Positions 26,601 through 36,992 of a stretch of DNA of 37,320 bases are shown one piece after another; position 1 is the stretch's first letter; every line of letters starts with the position of its first letter. This stretch comes from a virus (taxonomy: Duplodnaviria > Heunggongvirae > Uroviricota > Caudoviricetes): the IMG/VR virus record IMGVR_UViG_2534681604_000010, positions 1 to 37,320 of that record; one strand, given 5' to 3'. A program made the translations under genes and the position numbers. Below the pieces are notes generated by a model. It saw only the letters and a list, made by a program, of their open reading frames with translations. It did no database searches and had not been told where the DNA came from.

Positions 26601-26620
26601 AAAGGTGCCCTGGCACCTTT
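26601..26620. terminator. Hairpin between convergent Q and the accessory membrane-protein gene (likely bidirectional terminator)
   Basis: AAAGGTGC-CCTG-GCACCTTT perfect 8-bp stem, flanked by T-rich sequence. Confidence 0.45.
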
Positions 26621-27305
26621 ATCTATTGCACCTTGGATTAAACTTCCCTTCCACATAATTTACAACCTCAACAAATTCGCTACCATTTACCTCTCTAAAG
26701 CTAAAAACCCCTTTGCCATCTACGCATTTCTTTAAAACAAAATTTCCGTTATATTCTCCAACTACTATTTTTCCATCCAAGGTTTTCCATAGAACAGATG
26801 CAAACTGATTATGATAATTAATCCCTCCAAGAAAACTAGTAACTGACATAAAGAAAACCGTTAATATGGCATATACGAAATCTATATTAATCAAATCACC
26901 ACTTCGTTCAAATGTTTTGCACAACGACATTACCACCAACCATGAACAAATACCAAAAAGACCACCATTAAGATAGTTAACTAAGTCTTTTTCCCCCCTC
27001 TTAAAACTTAAAAAAACTGAAAATATTGTTATGGCAATAAAAATCCAAAGAACATACTTAATTTTATTAAGTTTAATCGCACCATCATTCAAAATAAAAT
27101 TAAAAACACCTATAATAATACTACCAAAATAGAAAAAAAGCTTTAAAGAAATATTCGCAACACTCGTTAAATCTAATGATATAAGTATTGCTGGATAACC
27201 AAAATAAACGGCCTCACCAAGTTTAAAAAAATATGCCAATATAAATAGCAACACCGTCAGTATTGTTACCAATGGAAAATCAAAGTTATTATTAAATTTA
27301 ACCAT
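26619..27305 (-). CDS. Hypothetical polytopic membrane protein (four to five predicted TM helices plus about 70-aa C-terminal soluble domain)
   Basis: 228-aa ORF in strongly AT-rich DNA between Q and cos; no family recognised. Confidence 0.55.
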   Translation of the reverse strand: MVKFNNNFDFPLVTILTVLLFILAYFFKLGEAVYFGYPAILISLDLTSVANISLKLFFYFGSIIIGVFNFILNDGAIKLNKIKYVLWIFIAITIFSVFLSFKRGEKDLVNYLNGGLFGICSWLVVMSLCKTFERSGDLINIDFVYAILTVFFMSVTSFLGGINYHNQFASVLWKTLDGKIVVGEYNGNFVLKKCVDGKGVFSFREVNGSEFVEVVNYVEGKFNPRCNR

Positions 27306-27360
27306 ACATTACAAGATTCCATTTTATTTTAATAGCGCCCACTTACGCAGACGCCCCATA

Positions 27361-27651
27361 TTATTCTTTAATAAGAGTACCCCAATCTACATCAGATTCT
27401 GCAACTACAATATTAATTGAACATTGTATGCACTCCTCACTTATTCTCGTATAAGTGAAATATCTAGTTTTAACAATACCACTAAACGAAGACCGACTAT
27501 TGTCATTACATATAGAGACAAAATCACCTACATTGGGAAGTAGAAGAAAAGGATTTTCTTCTGACGAACAGCCTACTATATCTCCGTCATCAATTGGTCT
27601 TGTGGACCCTTTAGGCAAGTATTGGTAATCATAGCTATATATCGTCTTCAT
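27361..27651 (-). CDS. Hypothetical small protein, upstream partner of the membrane protein
   Basis: 96-aa ORF, same strand, 55 bp upstream of 26619..27305; AT-rich. Confidence 0.45.
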   Translation of the reverse strand: MKTIYSYDYQYLPKGSTRPIDDGDIVGCSSEENPFLLLPNVGDFVSICNDNSRSSFSGIVKTRYFTYTRISEECIQCSINIVVAESDVDWGTLIKE

Positions 27652-27737: not shown

Positions 27738-27756
27738 CTGTTATGTCATCCCGCGC
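27738..27756. other. Candidate cos cohesive-end site
   Basis: Minus-strand GGCGTGGCGGGGATACGAG; the first 13 nt match the P2/186 cos end as I recall it (GGCG[A/T]GGCGGGGA); surrounded by GC-rich short repeats. Confidence 0.45.
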
Positions 27757-27936
27757 GCTCGTATCCCCGCCACGCCTGCCCGCTTTATGTAGCGGTTTTC
27801 ATGCGCCTGCATGACATAAGCAAAATCCCGCCACTCCTGGCGGGCCTCAGCTAAAACGATCCTCAAACGATCATGCGGATTCATGCGGCATAGACATGCA
27901 CAATCTCCAAAGCGGGCATCGAGACTTTTTGGAAAC

Positions 27937-28548
27937 CTACGTAACCACAGTTAATGTGTGCATCCTGTCTCGAATTGCATCACACGTCTCATCAAAAAGC
28001 TTGGTGATGGTTGTATGGTTCAACTCCGCCTCTTTCCAATAATTTTGCCCGTCAAATTCTGGATCGCTATGCTTAAACGATATTGACTCTGAAAGGCATT
28101 CCTTCCGGAAACGGTCCAAGATTATATAAACCTCTGGTGAGATGAACGGTTTGTTAGATTCAACACTTGTAACAAAAGTGTTAAATGCATCAGAAAAAAC
28201 TTTCAACCTTCTAAATTTTCTCTCTTCAAATGGTTCGTTGGGGTCAACATGATCCAGCGCAGGCCTCAGCTTAAGCACGCTTTCTCTGGTTTCAAACATC
28301 GAATTCCAAATGAGACTATATGCTGATAACTCCTTATCAAAATACGCTTTCGTTACATAAACAGAATTGTCTAACTTAGCCTTTATTCTTTCATTAGTTG
28401 CACTCAGTTGTGATTGAAATTCAGCAATATCTTTGTTTAGCCGCGACTTATATCTTTCTAAATAAACTTTCCCGATCCAAACAAATATGCCAGATGCAAC
28501 AAAAGACACCCCACCCAACGAAGCCAGAACTTTAAAGACTAAATCCAT
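27937..28548 (-). CDS. Hypothetical membrane-anchored protein (N-terminal TM helix, soluble C-terminal domain)
   Basis: 203-aa ORF; AT-rich; located between gene A and cos, the tin/old accessory position of P2. Confidence 0.55.
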   Translation of the reverse strand: MDLVFKVLASLGGVSFVASGIFVWIGKVYLERYKSRLNKDIAEFQSQLSATNERIKAKLDNSVYVTKAYFDKELSAYSLIWNSMFETRESVLKLRPALDHVDPNEPFEERKFRRLKVFSDAFNTFVTSVESNKPFISPEVYIILDRFRKECLSESISFKHSDPEFDGQNYWKEAELNHTTITKLFDETCDAIRDRMHTLTVVT

Positions 28549-28596
28549 TGCGCCCCCACCTGCAAAAATAGTATTCCATTATAAGCTAATACATTT

Positions 28597-28857
28597 TTAA
28601 TCAAACAGGGGATAATTCGCGTCAACCTCATCACTTCTCTGCTCTACCCTAGTGACTTCCATCAAAAACCCCAGGCCGTCATATAGCGAAACGGGGAATT
28701 CCAGCTCAAGCCAGAAGCAGTCTTCATAGATGCGGCCCAACCAAAAACCTCCGCCACACTCCTTTGGGCGTTGAAAGAAGACCCAGTCGCCAAGGGTTAA
28801 ACGTTCCAGCACCTAGCCCCGATAAATAATCTGGTGATTACTGTCTTTTTTACCCAT
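28597..28857 (-). pseudogene. Small ORF interrupted by an in-frame TAG (ATG 28857 ... TAG 28813..28815 ... resumes 28812)
   Basis: RBS GAGG upstream of ATG 28857; 14 codons, amber stop, then 71 further codons in the same frame. Confidence 0.35.
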
Positions 28858-28930
28858 GGCTAACGCCTCGCTACTCTCGTTGTTCAACCTTGCTGACGTC
28901 AGATTCAAGTTCTTACATCAGGAACGTTCC

Positions 28931-29164
28931 TTAGTGCAGCCAGCTGTCGTCTTCCCAAACCTGTTGCATAATTTCCATCACCCGCTTTTTGTCTTCATCA
29001 AGCTTTAAGCCACTCAGCTCAACGCCGTTTGCCGACCCTTTACGGATGCGGATAGCGGTCTTGGGATAGATGGGTTGCAGGTTGCGGTAAAGCTCGGACT
29101 CCAGAGCGTCCAGGGTAGACTGGCTAATCTTCTGCTCTTTATCGATCATTATTTCAATGCGCAT
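28931..29164 (-). CDS. DinI-family protein
   Basis: MRIEIMIDKEQKISQSTLDALESELYRNLQ...KKRVMEIMQQVWEDDSWLH resembles E. coli DinI (about 80 aa) as recalled; internal Met chosen as the start. Confidence 0.75.
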   Translation of the reverse strand: MRIEIMIDKEQKISQSTLDALESELYRNLQPIYPKTAIRIRKGSANGVELSGLKLDEDKKRVMEIMQQVWEDDSWLH

Positions 29165-29174
29165 AAAAGTCACC

Positions 29175-29363
29175 TCAGCTGATGACATCCATTGAGCGGT
29201 TGTATTCGTGGCTTCTGATTTTTGCCATGAGTTCATCAGTCAATTCAGAAACCCACTGCAGGGCCAGCCCCTTCTCTTCATCACTACACTCACTAGCCGC
29301 TACAAGCTTAAGAAAAAAATCAATGCGCTGGAGCTTCAAAGACTCCAAAAAATAGTCCTGCAT
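29175..29363 (-). CDS. Small acidic protein, first gene of the LexA-box operon
   Basis: 62 aa from the internal Met with strong RBS AGGAGG; sits between the LexA box and the DinI-like gene. Confidence 0.45.
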   Translation of the reverse strand: MQDYFLESLKLQRIDFFLKLVAASECSDEEKGLALQWVSELTDELMAKIRSHEYNRSMDVIS

Positions 29364-29404
29364 CTTTCCTCCTATGACACCGCAAACAATACTGTATAGA
29401 TAAC

Positions 29405-29424
29405 CACTGTTTATATTTACAGTA
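29405..29424. promoter_or_regulatory. LexA operator (SOS box) CACTGTTTATATTTACAGTA with adjacent half-site-like TACTGTATAG
   Basis: Canonical CTGT-N8-ACAG palindrome read from the sequence, upstream of the small-ORF/DinI-like gene pair. Confidence 0.65.
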
Positions 29425-29516
29425 TATGATAATCTTACTGATGTAAAACGTTTTTTTACGTTCATCAGCCTGATATGCCTGGTATTATTAAGAGCACGAA
29501 TTGTTAACCCGCGTAA

Positions 29517-31931
29517 TTAATACAGGTTCCGCCACTTATCATCTTCCTGCAAACGCTGGTTCCGATAGAAGACACGCAGGCCTGCTCCTGACGGAATACT
29601 GCCGCCGCGAAGGAGTAAATCGACCTCTTTCTCGCTGCCATCAAATCCTCTGGACTTCAGTTCATAGACGAGCTGCTGTCGTTGATGGTCTGTAATTCGC
29701 TGTTTGTAGTCTCTACGCCGTTTCGGTTTCACCAGGCGTAACCTTGCAGCCAGTTCCCGGCGCTCTTTTTTGTTCATACTGTGCAGGTAATCGTGCAACT
29801 CCTTGTCATCCATGTGGGTAATGTCCGTTCTGGTATCCCCATCAGCTGATTTGTCTTTCCCTTGTTGGTTCAAATTTTCAGCAAGGGGACAGTTATTGCC
29901 ACGAGTCCAAGGGGCGCAAGCGCCCTGGTCGGCTGCCGCCTCCTGAACGTCAACGGCCTTACGAACCATTTTCCACTTCACTGCATGAGTGCAGATCTTG
30001 CCCTCTGCAATGGGTGACCAGATGCCATAAATACGAATACCGTGATCACCATAGGCGGTCGGCTCTTCGTTGATTTCATAAGCGGTTCTGATCAAGTGAT
30101 ATTTGCGGGGAACCAACACGCCGCCCTGCTTCATAATGTAGGTGGCAAAACAGCCAGCATCAGCAGCAGCCAGAATGGCATCAAGACGCGGATCATCCAG
30201 TACCGGCGCACCTGCTTTTTTGTCACCCTGCTGCCTTGCCGCCTGACCAGCCAGCAATCGCAGTTCACGGTAAGCCTGACGCCCCGGAATGCCAAAGAAG
30301 CGGAATTGCTGAACACGATGCAGAGACGCCCAGGCATTAACGTATTCAGCGTTATCACGCAGGGATTTACCCGTTTCCTTGCTGATCTCGCCAGCCAGAC
30401 CACGCCCGTCAATGTTCTTACTGATGTATTTCGCGATGTAGCTTGTCGGCGTTCCTTTGCGCGGGTTAATCAGCTCAGACTTAAAGCGTGGCCCCGTGTT
30501 ATTGCCCAGTTCCTCGCGGTCTTCACGGATGGCAAACTTACGCAGTAATGCAGTGATGGCGCGGCGGTCTTTTTTACGCATGAAGCACATGAGATGCCAG
30601 TGCACAGTACCGTCATGATGCGGCTCAGCCACCCGCACGCCATACCACCGCAATCCGGCTTTGTGCATCGCCTTACGAAATGCAGCAAACATGCCGACCA
30701 GATAATCACTGCTTTGTCTTACCGTCGCATTTGTCCAGGTCGGGTTTGGTCTGCCGTTATTGAGCGTGGAATGGAAACGTGACGGACAGGTGATGGTGTA
30801 GAAAACGGCGCAGTCACCGCGCATTTCCGCGATAAGCTCCAGACCTTTAACGCAGGCCATCATCTCATTGCGGCGATGTGCCGGGTTGCTGCTGCTGGCG
30901 TTTACCACATCTTCCATATCCAGCGTGTCTCCGTCTTCGTTCACCAGTTCATGAGAACGGAAAAACTCCAGCGACTTGCGGCGCTGCTCACGTTTATGCG
31001 TCACTGCTTCATAGCTGACATAGGGAGATGCTTTTTTGCTGACCAGACAGACAGCACGCAACTGCTCTTCCCGCCATTCGCAACGCATCTTCCACAATTT
31101 TCGATACCACCAGTCGGCGCAAAGCATACGTGCCAGCGAACCCGGTATGAGTTCATAGGGCACAGGTTTGCGGCGGTTTCTTTTCCGACGAAGTTTCTCA
31201 AACGCAGGCGGGATAACATCCAGACGCAGGGTTTCCGCAGCCACCTTTTCCCATGTCTTGCGGATTTCTTCTGGCTTAACGTCATCGGTGGCGTACAAAT
31301 CACCACAAGCGGCCTCAAGACACATGCTCATATGCGCTGCTACCAGGGTGGACAGGCGTTTCACCTGATCCTGGCTCATTTCAGGCAGGATCAGCAGCCC
31401 CTCCAGCCCTTGATGGCTTGCCATAAAACGGAAAGAAACAGATAGCTGACTGTCACGTACACAATCCAGTCGCTCCAGACATGGCTTAATCGTCTCACGC
31501 AAATAGCGGGAATAAGCCTTTGGCCTGCCCAGGCTGCTGAAGTATTCGATACGTTGCATCAGCGGCTTGCTGATATGAGAAGGCTGGGCGCTGACATCTG
31601 CCAGAATGACCATGTCCGGGTTAAAACGCTGCTGCTCATGCGCCAGCTTTGCCCGGCTAATGAGCTTATCCTGCTCCATTTCGCGCTGGACAGGATCACG
31701 GGATTCATTAAAGAAATAACGCTCCCAGACCTGCTCACTCAGTGCCTCGCGGCGCAGTTGTTCCTGCTCGTTATCGGCAGCGTACAGAGTGATCAGGTTT
31801 GAAAGTGCAGACTCCGGCGCAACTTCCGCCGGATCCAGATAAGGGTTAATGGCCTTTTTCGGGCCGTTCCATGAAAATGCTGCGGCAGCCTCGTTAAAGC
31901 CGCTAGAGTTGCTCATATCGTCATGACTCAT
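29517..31931 (-). CDS. A: Replication initiation protein gpA (rolling-circle HUH endonuclease family)
   Basis: 804 aa; contains a GTVHWH motif; P2/186 A position. Confidence 0.85.
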
Positions 31932-34850: not shown

Positions 34851-34995
34851 AAGGCAACATTCCTTCTAGATATGGCTTGTGGCGAGCCGTTGTTTGTCGT
34901 GATTAGTAGTGAAGGCTCCAAAAGAACACTTCTGGTTCAACTTTAAGATCGCTTTTGGAATCTGTCAACGAATTTTGGATTTCTTTGGAGGACTT

Positions 34996-35565
34996 GTGGA
35001 TTTCAATAGCGGCGGTAAGAAAGCCATAGAACGTTTAGTTGAAGCATATGGGTTCGGTACCCGTCAGGCTCTCTGTGATCATTTAGGTGTTTCTAAGAGC
35101 ACCATGGCAACGCGCTATATGCGTGATATTTTTCCAGCAGATTGGGTAATCCAGTGCGCCCTTGAAACGGGCACCTCGCTTAATTGGCTAACAACAGGGC
35201 ATGGTTCAAAGCAAGCATCAGCAAATACAAATACTATAGAAGTAGAAAAATATTTATTGTCTGATGGAGCATTGCAGAAAGACGGTTTTTATATTTTTGA
35301 TAAGGGATTTCTACCCTCTACGTTTAAAAAACCTTTTGTCATCACAGATAACAATTCTGAATTTATTTGTGATAAAGAATTTGATGATATACGTGATGGT
35401 AAATGGGTAATAAGTATTGATGGCGAAATAACGATCCGTGACATTACTCGTTTACCCGGTGGAAGAATCTTCGTCGAGGGTGGAAACAGAGCCTTCGAAT
35501 GCAAGATAGAAGACATTGAAATAATTGGTAAAATTATAAGTTTAACAGTCAAGTATGTTAAATAG
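34996..35565 (+). CDS. cI: CI-like immunity repressor (phage 186 type)
   Basis: ...ERLVEAYGFGTRQALCDHLGVSKSTMATRY...CALETGTSLNWLTTGHG... resembles 186 CI as recalled; GTG start at 34996 after GGAGG gives about 190 aa; the ORF track starts at 34909. Confidence 0.75.
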   Translation: MDFNSGGKKAIERLVEAYGFGTRQALCDHLGVSKSTMATRYMRDIFPADWVIQCALETGTSLNWLTTGHGSKQASANTNTIEVEKYLLSDGALQKDGFYIFDKGFLPSTFKKPFVITDNNSEFICDKEFDDIRDGKWVISIDGEITIRDITRLPGGRIFVEGGNRAFECKIEDIEIIGKIISLTVKYVK

Positions 35566-35772: not shown

Positions 35773-35960
35773 CTTTTGCTTTTATATCTGCGTCTAAAAT
35801 AAAAATGAGCCGCATGTTAACCGCAAAAGTTACATGCTCACATAGCAAAAAGAATAGCCAACTTCATTATGGCTTCAGTGAGATGTATGGTCGTAGGATT
35901 TCATACATTGACACTGGTTATACATACAGTAAAAATGCTCTCTACTGGAGGGCATTTTTT

Positions 35961-36992
35961 ATGGCAGTACGAAAACTCACCACAGGGAAATGGCTTTGCG
36001 AATGTTACCCCGCCGGAAGAAGTGGGCGTCGTGTGCGTAAACAATTCGCCACCAAAGGCGAAGCTCTGGCTTTTGAGCGTCACACGATGGAAGAAACCGA
36101 ATCAAAGCCCTGGCTGGGCGAATCAGTGGATCGTCGAACCCTGAAAGACGTGGTTGAGCTATGGTTCAAATTACATGGTAAATCTCTGACTGCTGGGCAG
36201 CATGTCTATGACAAATTGCTGCTGATGGTTGACGCTCTAGGCAATCCTCTTGCAACCAATCTCACCTCTAAAATGTTTGCCCACTATCGAGATAAACGCC
36301 TGACAGGTGAGATCTACTTCAGCGAGAAATGGAAGAAAGGAGCCAGCCCGGTCACCATTAACCTGGAGCAAAGCTATCTAAGTAGTGTTTTTAGCGAACT
36401 ATCCCGCCTGGGCGAATGGTCGTATCCAAACCCACTGGAGAACATGCGAAAATTCACCATCGCAGAAAAAGAGATGGCATGGCTTACCCATGAGCAGATT
36501 GTTGAATTGCTGGCTGATTGCAAACGTCAGGACCCAATTCTGGCACTGGTAGTTAAGATATGCTTAAGCACAGGCGCACGTTGGCGTGAAGCCGTAAATC
36601 TTACCCGCTCACAGGTGACCAAATACCGAATTACCTTTGTAAGAACGAAGGGGAAGAAAAACAGAAGCATCCCTATCAGTAAAGAGCTTTACGAAGAGAT
36701 CATGGCGCTTGATGGGTTCAATTTCTTTACAGACTGCTATTTTCAATTTTTATCCGTGATGGAAAAAACGTCTATCGTGCTCCCTCGCGGTCAACTGACA
36801 CACGTTCTGCGCCATACGTTTGCGGCGCACTTCATGATGTCGGGTGGAAATATCCTGGCCTTACAAAAAATTCTCGGGCATCACGATATAAAAATGACTA
36901 TGCGTTACGCACATCTGGCACCGGATCACCTGGAAACTGCATTACGGTTTAATCCGCTGGCAACACTACCAACATCAATAGCAAGTTTTTGA
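35961..36992 (+). CDS. int: Tyrosine integrase (phage integrase family)
   Basis: C-terminal catalytic region ...HVLRHTFAAHFMMSGGNILALQKILGHHDIKMTMRYAHL (R...HxxR...Y); internal Met used as the start (343 aa). Confidence 0.9.
   Translation: MAVRKLTTGKWLCECYPAGRSGRRVRKQFATKGEALAFERHTMEETESKPWLGESVDRRTLKDVVELWFKLHGKSLTAGQHVYDKLLLMVDALGNPLATNLTSKMFAHYRDKRLTGEIYFSEKWKKGASPVTINLEQSYLSSVFSELSRLGEWSYPNPLENMRKFTIAEKEMAWLTHEQIVELLADCKRQDPILALVVKICLSTGARWREAVNLTRSQVTKYRITFVRTKGKKNRSIPISKELYEEIMALDGFNFFTDCYFQFLSVMEKTSIVLPRGQLTHVLRHTFAAHFMMSGGNILALQKILGHHDIKMTMRYAHLAPDHLETALRFNPLATLPTSIASF

Follow-up and report, generated by a model that had tools for sequence, protein, structure and literature searches.

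A predicted SOS induction module with a split tum operon in a Fels-2/186-type prophage

Prophage and gene context

The window analyzed here is a 37,320-nucleotide stretch of a Caudoviricetes record in IMG/VR (IMGVR_UViG_2534681604_000010, positions 1 to 37,320). Within it lies a complete-looking prophage of the P2/186 family, which is of the Fels-2/186 type (Peduoviridae); among phage records, that of Escherichia phage Cartapus comes closest (97.5% identity over 28500-29600). The early operon runs on the minus strand from CII through Fil to gpA, and the switch region of the CI repressor also holds CII (CP76) and Fil. The genes studied (Table 1) follow gene A, between gpA and the head genes, and phage 186 carries its SOS operon, p95-tum-orf97, in the equivalent position. 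The parallel with 186 drawn in the original prediction held, both in the placement of the operon after gene A, like p95-tum, and in the presence of a 186-type CI, CII, and Fil.

Table 1. Features of the predicted SOS operon and of the surrounding prophage (window positions)
Feature	Position	Strand	Remark
cos-like sequence GGCGTGGCGGGGA	about 27776-27764	-	Seen by eye
Terminator-like hairpin CCCGCCAGGAGTGGCGGG then ATTTTGCTT	27827..27844	-	Just before cos-like sequence
Second cargo ORF, 203 aa (phrog_26391)	27937..28548	-	Function unassigned
First cargo ORF (phrog_2100)	28597..28857	-	In-frame TAG at 28815-28813
dinI/tumB-like gene, 77 aa	28931..29164	-	Pfam DinI PF06183, 2e-24
tumA-like gene, 62-aa predicted antirepressor (phrog_698)	29175..29363	-	Homology to N-terminal half of Tum
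Shine-Dalgarno AGGAGG	29368..29373	-	4 nt before ATG of 62-aa ORF
SOS box 2	29390..29409	no strand	Core 29392-29407, CTGTATAGATAACCAC; degenerate inner half-site
SOS (LexA) box 1, CACTGTTTATATTTACAGTA	29405..29424	no strand	17/20 match to consensus TACTGTATATATATACAGTA
Putative -10 hexamer TACTGT	29419..29424	-	Upstream/outer half of SOS box 1
Putative -35 hexamer TTTACA of SOS promoter	29442..29447	-	Aligns with 186 p95 -35 TTCACA
gpA replication endonuclease	31931-29517	-	End of early operon
CII	34591-34073	-	Pfam Phage_CP76, 3.4e-42
186-type CI immunity repressor, presumed antirepressor target	34909..35565	+	Phage_CI_repr 3.3e-31, Phage_CI_C 4.7e-29
ORF in integrase position	35805-36992	+	Assigned by position

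The layout of gpA, LexA box, ORF of ~60 aa, 77-aa DinI homologue, cargo, and cos is shared with Fels-2 (STM2728/STM2727 [STM2726.1]) and PSP3 (tumA-tumB). Fels-2 STM2728 and the 62-aa protein share 96.8% identity, and the annotation of the DinI gene behind STM2728 notes its similarity to PSP3 TumB; the cargo genes further downstream and the CI allele of Fels-2 differ from those of the window. In the PSP3 record, tumA is described as "similar to 5' end 186 tum; UV induction of prophage" and tumB as "similar to dinI and 3' end of 186 tum," and PSP3 TumA belongs to another subfamily (phrog_1993, versus phrog_698 in the window). Tum itself has the appearance of an antirepressor fused to DinI (Lemire et al. 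2011, PMC3121763), tum is split by a stop codon in Fels-2 and PSP3 (PMC3121763), and the upstream gene of PSP3 encodes an antirepressor according to a personal communication in Bunny et al. 2002, as cited in PMC3121763. The reading of the operon as a split tum is already known for these near-identical orthologues (Fels-2, PSP3).

Operator and promoter

The CTGT-N8-ACAG box of the original prediction is present as CTGTTTATATTTACAG at exactly 29407-29422. The 16-mer pattern by itself is weak, non-significant evidence, because chance alone would give 0.47 matches per window, and at least one turns up in 39 of 100 shuffles. The extended 20-mer, scored against the E. coli LexA consensus, is the sole such site in the 37 kb, and none of 100 shuffles yields one. 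In an alignment of 11 phages (the window, Cartapus, Fels-2, SopEphi, ST437-OXA245phi4.1, 500465-1, 186, PSP3, ESSI-2, ESSI2_ev129, and a Yersinia phage), TACTGT-N8-ACAGT is unchanged while the flanks diverge in the region upstream of the small gene, and the aligned site of 186 is the annotated LexA operator of p95. Such conservation across phages is stronger evidence for a LexA box than any count within the window. A LexA box also precedes the start codon by 35 to 45 nt in three distant metagenomic members of the small-protein family (one of the boxes with a single core mismatch).

The promoter is probably p95-like and overlapped by the LexA box. TTTACA is conserved in the Fels-2 group, and TACTGT is identical to the annotated -10 of 186 p95 both in sequence and in its placement relative to the LexA box; the spacer is 17 nt here versus 18 nt in p95 (TTCACA-18 nt-TACTGT). 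In 186, p95 is repressed by LexA, and like the predicted promoter of the window it follows gene A and has its -10 inside the LexA box. A generic promoter scan reported no sigma-70 site at the SOS promoter, because the -10 has only three of six consensus matches, exactly as in the annotated p95. Just upstream of, and overlapping, the -35 is an imperfect inverted repeat (CTGATGAACG-TAAAAAAA-CGTTTTACATCAG, 29438-29468, minus strand) whose conservation extends to Cartapus, Fels-2, and 500465-1; weak termination of the gpA transcript may be its role, comparable to the palindromes reported before Gifsy LexA boxes.

The adjacent half-site of the original prediction proved to be part of something larger, the second box (CTGTATAGATAACCAC) of a double overlapping SOS operator, the core of which shares one base with that of box 1 (29392-29407 and 29407-29422). 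In the six phages that have box 2 (the window, Cartapus, Fels-2, SopEphi, ST437-OXA245phi4.1, and 500465-1), its half-sites (outer ACAG, inner GTGG) are invariant and the N8 spacer varies, the pattern expected of a protein-binding site. Box 2 is absent from the other aligned phages (186, PSP3, ESSI-2, ESSI2_ev129, and the Yersinia phage), so that 186 and PSP3 have one LexA box where the window and Fels-2 have two. A 40-nt query over both boxes retrieved small bacteriocin plasmids, with matches directly upstream of the pesticin (pPCP1) and colicin Y genes, and the three sequences align base for base over both boxes (window, ACTGTAAATATAAACAGTGGTTATCTATACAGTATT; pesticin, ACTGTACATAAAAACAGTGGTTTTATGTACAGTATT; colicin Y, ACTGTACATAAAACCAGTGGTTATGTATACAGTATT). 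The colicin and pesticin operators likewise consist of two 16-bp LexA boxes that share one base and have degenerate inner half-sites, but a bacteriocin gene lies downstream of them, whereas the gene in the window is an unrelated, predicted prophage antirepressor. Judged from these alignments, the Fels-2 subgroup, and only that subgroup, appears to have a colicin-type double overlapping SOS operator. Colicin double boxes bind two LexA dimers cooperatively, which gives tight, late induction and prevents untimely expression (PMC2994835); a double operator could make induction tighter or later at the promoter predicted here as well.

For the orthologous operon of Fels-2, induction by DNA damage is on record: in a microarray study of Salmonella TA100 carrying Fels-2, all three genes of STM2726-STM2727-STM2728 rose significantly (2.6- to 14.8-fold) after treatment with the mutagen MX, an induction comparable with that of umuDC (PMC2225428). 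That the box in the window is a chance or decayed match, with a promoter not regulated by LexA in this prophage, is extremely unlikely given this induction, the outcome of the 20-mer shuffles, the invariance of the box in 11 phages with diverging flanks, and the alignment of the second box with colicin and pesticin operators, even though the frequency of the bare pattern and the empty promoter scan would both be expected under such a reading.

The DinI-like gene

The DinI-family gene noted in the original prediction is present downstream of the small gene, and the DinI domain covers the whole protein (residues 14-76 on positions 1-63 of the 63-position PF06183 profile). The protein also matches phrog_189 (1.6e-30) and shares 43% identity with the C-terminal half of 186 Tum (residues 71-145). 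Against the NCBIfam equivalog for E. coli DinI it scores 53.7 bits (2e-14), below the cutoff of 111, and it is therefore a paralogue and not the host DinI. Proteins of the DinI family bind RecA filaments and modulate their coprotease activity, and the same is presumed here from family membership.

In ESSI-2, ESSI2_ev129, and three metagenomic P2-like loci, dinI is missing, yet each has the small gene directly behind gpA and a LexA box. The constant partner of the LexA box is thus the small protein, not DinI, and the dinI-less loci fit a small protein that is the essential antirepressor and a DinI that is an accessory.

The 62-aa protein

The small ORF is the first gene behind the LexA-box promoter between gene A and cos. 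Its ribosome-binding site is strong, as originally described, and GGAGG is conserved in all aligned phages. Relative to SopEphi, the ORF has 8 differences at first, 2 at second, and 21 at third codon positions; of the codon changes, 20 are synonymous and 6 nonsynonymous, which indicates that the 62-aa frame is translated and under purifying selection. A lack of translation, which would have counted against the original prediction, is thereby contradicted. A longer ORF-finder call at this place (96 aa, 29465-29175) was rejected as an upstream extension that runs through the promoter. The database search gave 484 relatives at an E value of ≤0.01; among the 120 matches listed, most are 62 aa long with the same start methionine, and the longer calls (87 to 96 aa) are again upstream extensions through the promoter.

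The original prediction of a short Tum-like antirepressor called for comparison with 186 Tum and its short homologues. No similarity between the 62-aa protein and 186 Tum was found by BLASTP, and profile methods were therefore needed. A Smith-Waterman alignment scored 57 (shuffles, 21-25 ± 4; 0 of 2,000 reached 57) and placed residues 6-41 on Tum residues 6-41. The family retrieved by an exhaustive profile search comprises 87 cluster representatives (about 60 to 70 aa), and its distant members approach the Tum N terminus (ERIELIARL versus ERVEMIARL). With hhalign, this family matched stand-alone Tum N-modules at 96.9% probability (E value, 1.5e-10; columns 1-46 on 1-46). The PHROG matches were reciprocal and in register: the N-terminal half of 186 Tum matched PHROG 698, that of the window protein, at 6.7e-6, and the window protein matched PHROG 1993, the PSP3 TumA family, at 0.002. 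Both queries matched a "tum protein" of a Yersinia phage at the same locus. Identity to the 186 and PSP3 N-modules is only about 20 to 22%. By these comparisons, the 62-aa protein is distantly homologous to the N-terminal half of 186 Tum, the antirepressor part, and to PSP3 TumA, and at the level of sequence the Tum-like reading stood.

In 186, one 146-aa protein, Tum, combines an N-module that is related by homology to the 62-aa protein with a C-module that is so related to the DinI-like protein, whereas in the window they are split by a stop codon and have separate ribosome-binding sites. Internal starts in 186 tum give truncated DinI-only products that are annotated as modulators. A downstream accessory gene is cotranscribed in 186, and the repressor of the window, like that of 186, is a 186-type CI. 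Tum is an anti-CI factor that sequesters CI once the LexA-regulated p95 is derepressed (PMC7708051). The small proteins GfoA/GftA of Gifsy and AntC of N15 are likewise encoded in prophage operons under LexA repression that include a dinI homologue; by binding, they inactivate a noncleavable repressor, and they can act in trans on further prophages (PMC3121763). The Gifsy and N15 operons differ from that of the window in that dinI is first (reversed order), the phages are lambdoid, and the repressor is of another family.

The 62-aa protein belongs to a family of its own with conserved residues, including a nearly invariant cysteine in the turn of a predicted hairpin. An AlphaFold2 model built from a diverse alignment is a confident two-helix hairpin (pLDDT, 88; helices 2-23 and 28-61). 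A structural search of the PDB with the model returned generic helical hairpins only, none at an E value of ≤0.001, and a sequence search of solved structures gave no match, nor did Pfam, NCBIfam, or PADLOC. The protein is labeled "hypothetical protein" by PGAP and "unknown function" in PHROGs (phrog_698).

These properties bear on a reading in which the module mainly benefits the host, or competition among prophages, instead of serving induction, with DinI as the payload that damps RecA coprotease, the SOS response, and the induction of coresident lambdoid prophages, and with the small ORF as a leader or coupling peptide. DinI-family genes do occur in LexA-controlled operons of many prophages, nonpolar dinI deletions are without effect on Gifsy induction (PMC3121763), and the DinI-only products of 186 would be in keeping with such a role. 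A leader or coupling peptide would hardly show the strong amino acid selection seen in the codon changes, form its own family, or persist where dinI is absent, and we consider this reading very unlikely. A hairpin (29186-29169) that covers both the Shine-Dalgarno sequence of dinI and the end of the small ORF, stop codon included, was tried as a coupling or attenuator element and rejected; it folds no better than shuffles (z = -1.15; 27/200) and is not conserved in SopEphi or ST437phi4.1, which again speaks against the small ORF as a coupling peptide.

Some distant members of the TumA family (P0265, P0275, P0276, P0281, P0295, P0301, P0303, P0307, and P0311) carry a conserved tail, K-N/S-P-Q-x-G-G-...-G-x-L/F-Q, that the window protein does not have. 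The TumA copy of Escherichia phage 500465-1 (1201-1389) has a short out-of-frame patch between normal flanks (EERGWLCSGV versus EEKGLALQWV), which suggests compensating indels or sequencing errors.

Downstream genes and cos

The original prediction also held that the downstream accessory genes could be cotranscribed with the operon, and this remains plausible. A terminator scan and folding found no terminator between dinI and the next ORF (z = -1.06), and in Fels-2 STM2726 rose together with STM2727 and STM2728. Going downstream from the promoter, and leaving aside the rejected hairpin, no terminator-like site comes before the hairpin at 27844-27827, which is the probable end of the SOS transcript as far as can be read from the sequence. 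The layout p95-tum-t95a-orf97-t95b-cos of 186 parallels that of the window. Directly after the dinI stop codon are two perfect 10-bp palindromes, GGAACGTTCC and CTGACGTCAG (28921-28930 and 28893-28902), for which no significant RNA structure was found.

Codon 15 of the first cargo ORF is TAG here versus CAG (Q) in the intact 86-aa gene of Cartapus, so that the ORF would be either a pseudogene or restarted at the following GTG, giving 71 aa. The cargo ORFs have no significant matches in Pfam, NCBIfam, or PADLOC, the 203-aa ORF included.

The linear record of phage Cartapus ends near the cos-like sequence. A longer stretch around it (GGCGTGGCGGGGATACGAG, about 27758-27780, minus strand) presumably resembles the start of the 186/P2 cohesive-end sequence; a search with the 19-mer of P2 cos, allowing up to 3 mismatches, gave no match. 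The cos-like sequence lies inside a called 47-aa ORF (27741-27884; phrog_28685, truncated match, 1-45 of 72), which would span cos and so may not be a real gene.

Two ORFs of 96 aa (phrog_12676) and 228 aa (phrog_35408) separate the cos region from the portal gene (26619-27651, minus strand), in a region that looks like a P2-type cargo/defense hotspot. Neither has matches in PADLOC, Pfam, or NCBIfam, and they are candidates for an uncharacterized defense pair. E. coli strain H1 is 99.9% identical over 27752-29520 and has retron St85 just beyond the common 203-aa ORF.

Induction and the CI repressor

The locus is very probably the SOS induction module of a Fels-2/186-type prophage, composed of a LexA-repressed TumA-like antirepressor and DinI; the binding of LexA and CI and the transcriptional read-through are what we infer. 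In an undamaged cell, LexA would sit on the double operator over the -10 and the start region and keep both genes silent. DNA damage would activate RecA, LexA would cleave itself, and the operon would be transcribed. The first product, the two-helix TumA-like protein of 62 residues, would then bind the 186-type CI stoichiometrically and block its binding to the operator, and with CI neutralized, the lytic promoter would fire and the prophage would be induced. DinI/TumB would not be needed for antirepression and probably modulates the activity of RecA filaments and the time course of the SOS response. Transcription would probably continue into the two cargo ORFs and stop at the hairpin just before cos.

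The cognate repressor carries the Pfam domains of 186 CI and appears from them to be of the noncleaving 186 type; its match to Peptidase_S24 (0.0091) is below the cutoff. The CI ORF as listed has a GTG start and 218 aa, and its true start codon is uncertain because there is no ATG nearby and similarity to other CIs begins near residue 30.

An SOS-controlled operon in which the 62-aa protein is not an antirepressor is unlikely. The protein would then work with DinI or regulate it, or would be a moron directed at the host, and induction would go by another route, such as RecA-stimulated inactivation of CI. For this reading speak the remoteness of the similarity to Tum, the faint Peptidase_S24-like signal of CI (E value, 0.0091), and the occurrence of a nearly invariant TumA beside very different CIs. 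The S24 signal is, however, below the Pfam cutoff, and the domain is the Phage_CI_C of 186 CI, which Tum inactivates. The presence of the small gene without dinI in several P2-like phages implies that it is not a mere accessory of DinI, its homology is in register with the half of Tum to which the DinI domain is joined at the C-terminal side, and PSP3 tumA is annotated for UV induction.

The combination of TumA and CI was followed further. Phages with a TumA 85 to 100% identical to that of the window have CIs only 38 to 57% identical overall, which one would not expect of a protein that binds specifically, unless its target surface is the conserved N-domain. The N-terminal helix-turn-helix (HTH) domain of CI is 60 to 83% identical within the group and 37 to 51% identical to 186 and PSP3, while the C-terminal domain is 23 to 55% identical within the group and 24 to 33% between groups. 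Across 131 phage records, the identity of the CI N-domain to that of the window was 70 to 83% with a phrog_698 TumA (85 to 100% identical to that of the window), 58 to 69% with an ESSI-type TumA (41 to 49% identical), about 50% with the PSP3 and Yersinia types, and 35 to 43% with the fused Tum of the 186 type. The type of TumA tracks the N-terminal HTH domain of CI and not the C-terminal domain. This suggests that TumA may recognize the DNA-binding domain of CI and might also act on heteroimmune relatives; alternatively, the covariation could stem from how closely the phages are related in general. One N-terminal HTH domain is present in the CI of the window, Cartapus, 813R9, and 186, and two in tandem in that of Klebsiella phage Kp4860-7 and PSP3.

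Tentatively, and with more doubt than confidence, we propose that one almost invariant TumA (at least 96% identical) serves a set of heteroimmune P2-like prophages by binding the N-terminal HTH domain, the only part that their CI repressors have in common, and that the double operator raises the damage threshold. If true, SOS induction would cross-react between coresident Fels-2-type prophages, any CI with that N-domain would be inducible in trans, and the damage threshold of the Fels-2 subgroup would be higher than that set by the single box of 186 and PSP3.

As a discovery the operon is of little value, as the split tum of Fels-2 and PSP3 and its control by LexA are already in the literature; what the double operator and the connection of TumA type with the N-domain of CI add to this is small and can be tested. 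The practical value is in annotation of a common, poorly labeled gene: the name "TumA-like antirepressor" would mark such prophages as SOS inducible through an antirepressor and would flag the cargo genes behind it as probably damage inducible. The small gene with its operator is present in 1,100 of 5,426 complete E. coli genomes (about 20%), labeled hypothetical in all of them, and the gene also occurs in many Klebsiella and Salmonella prophages.
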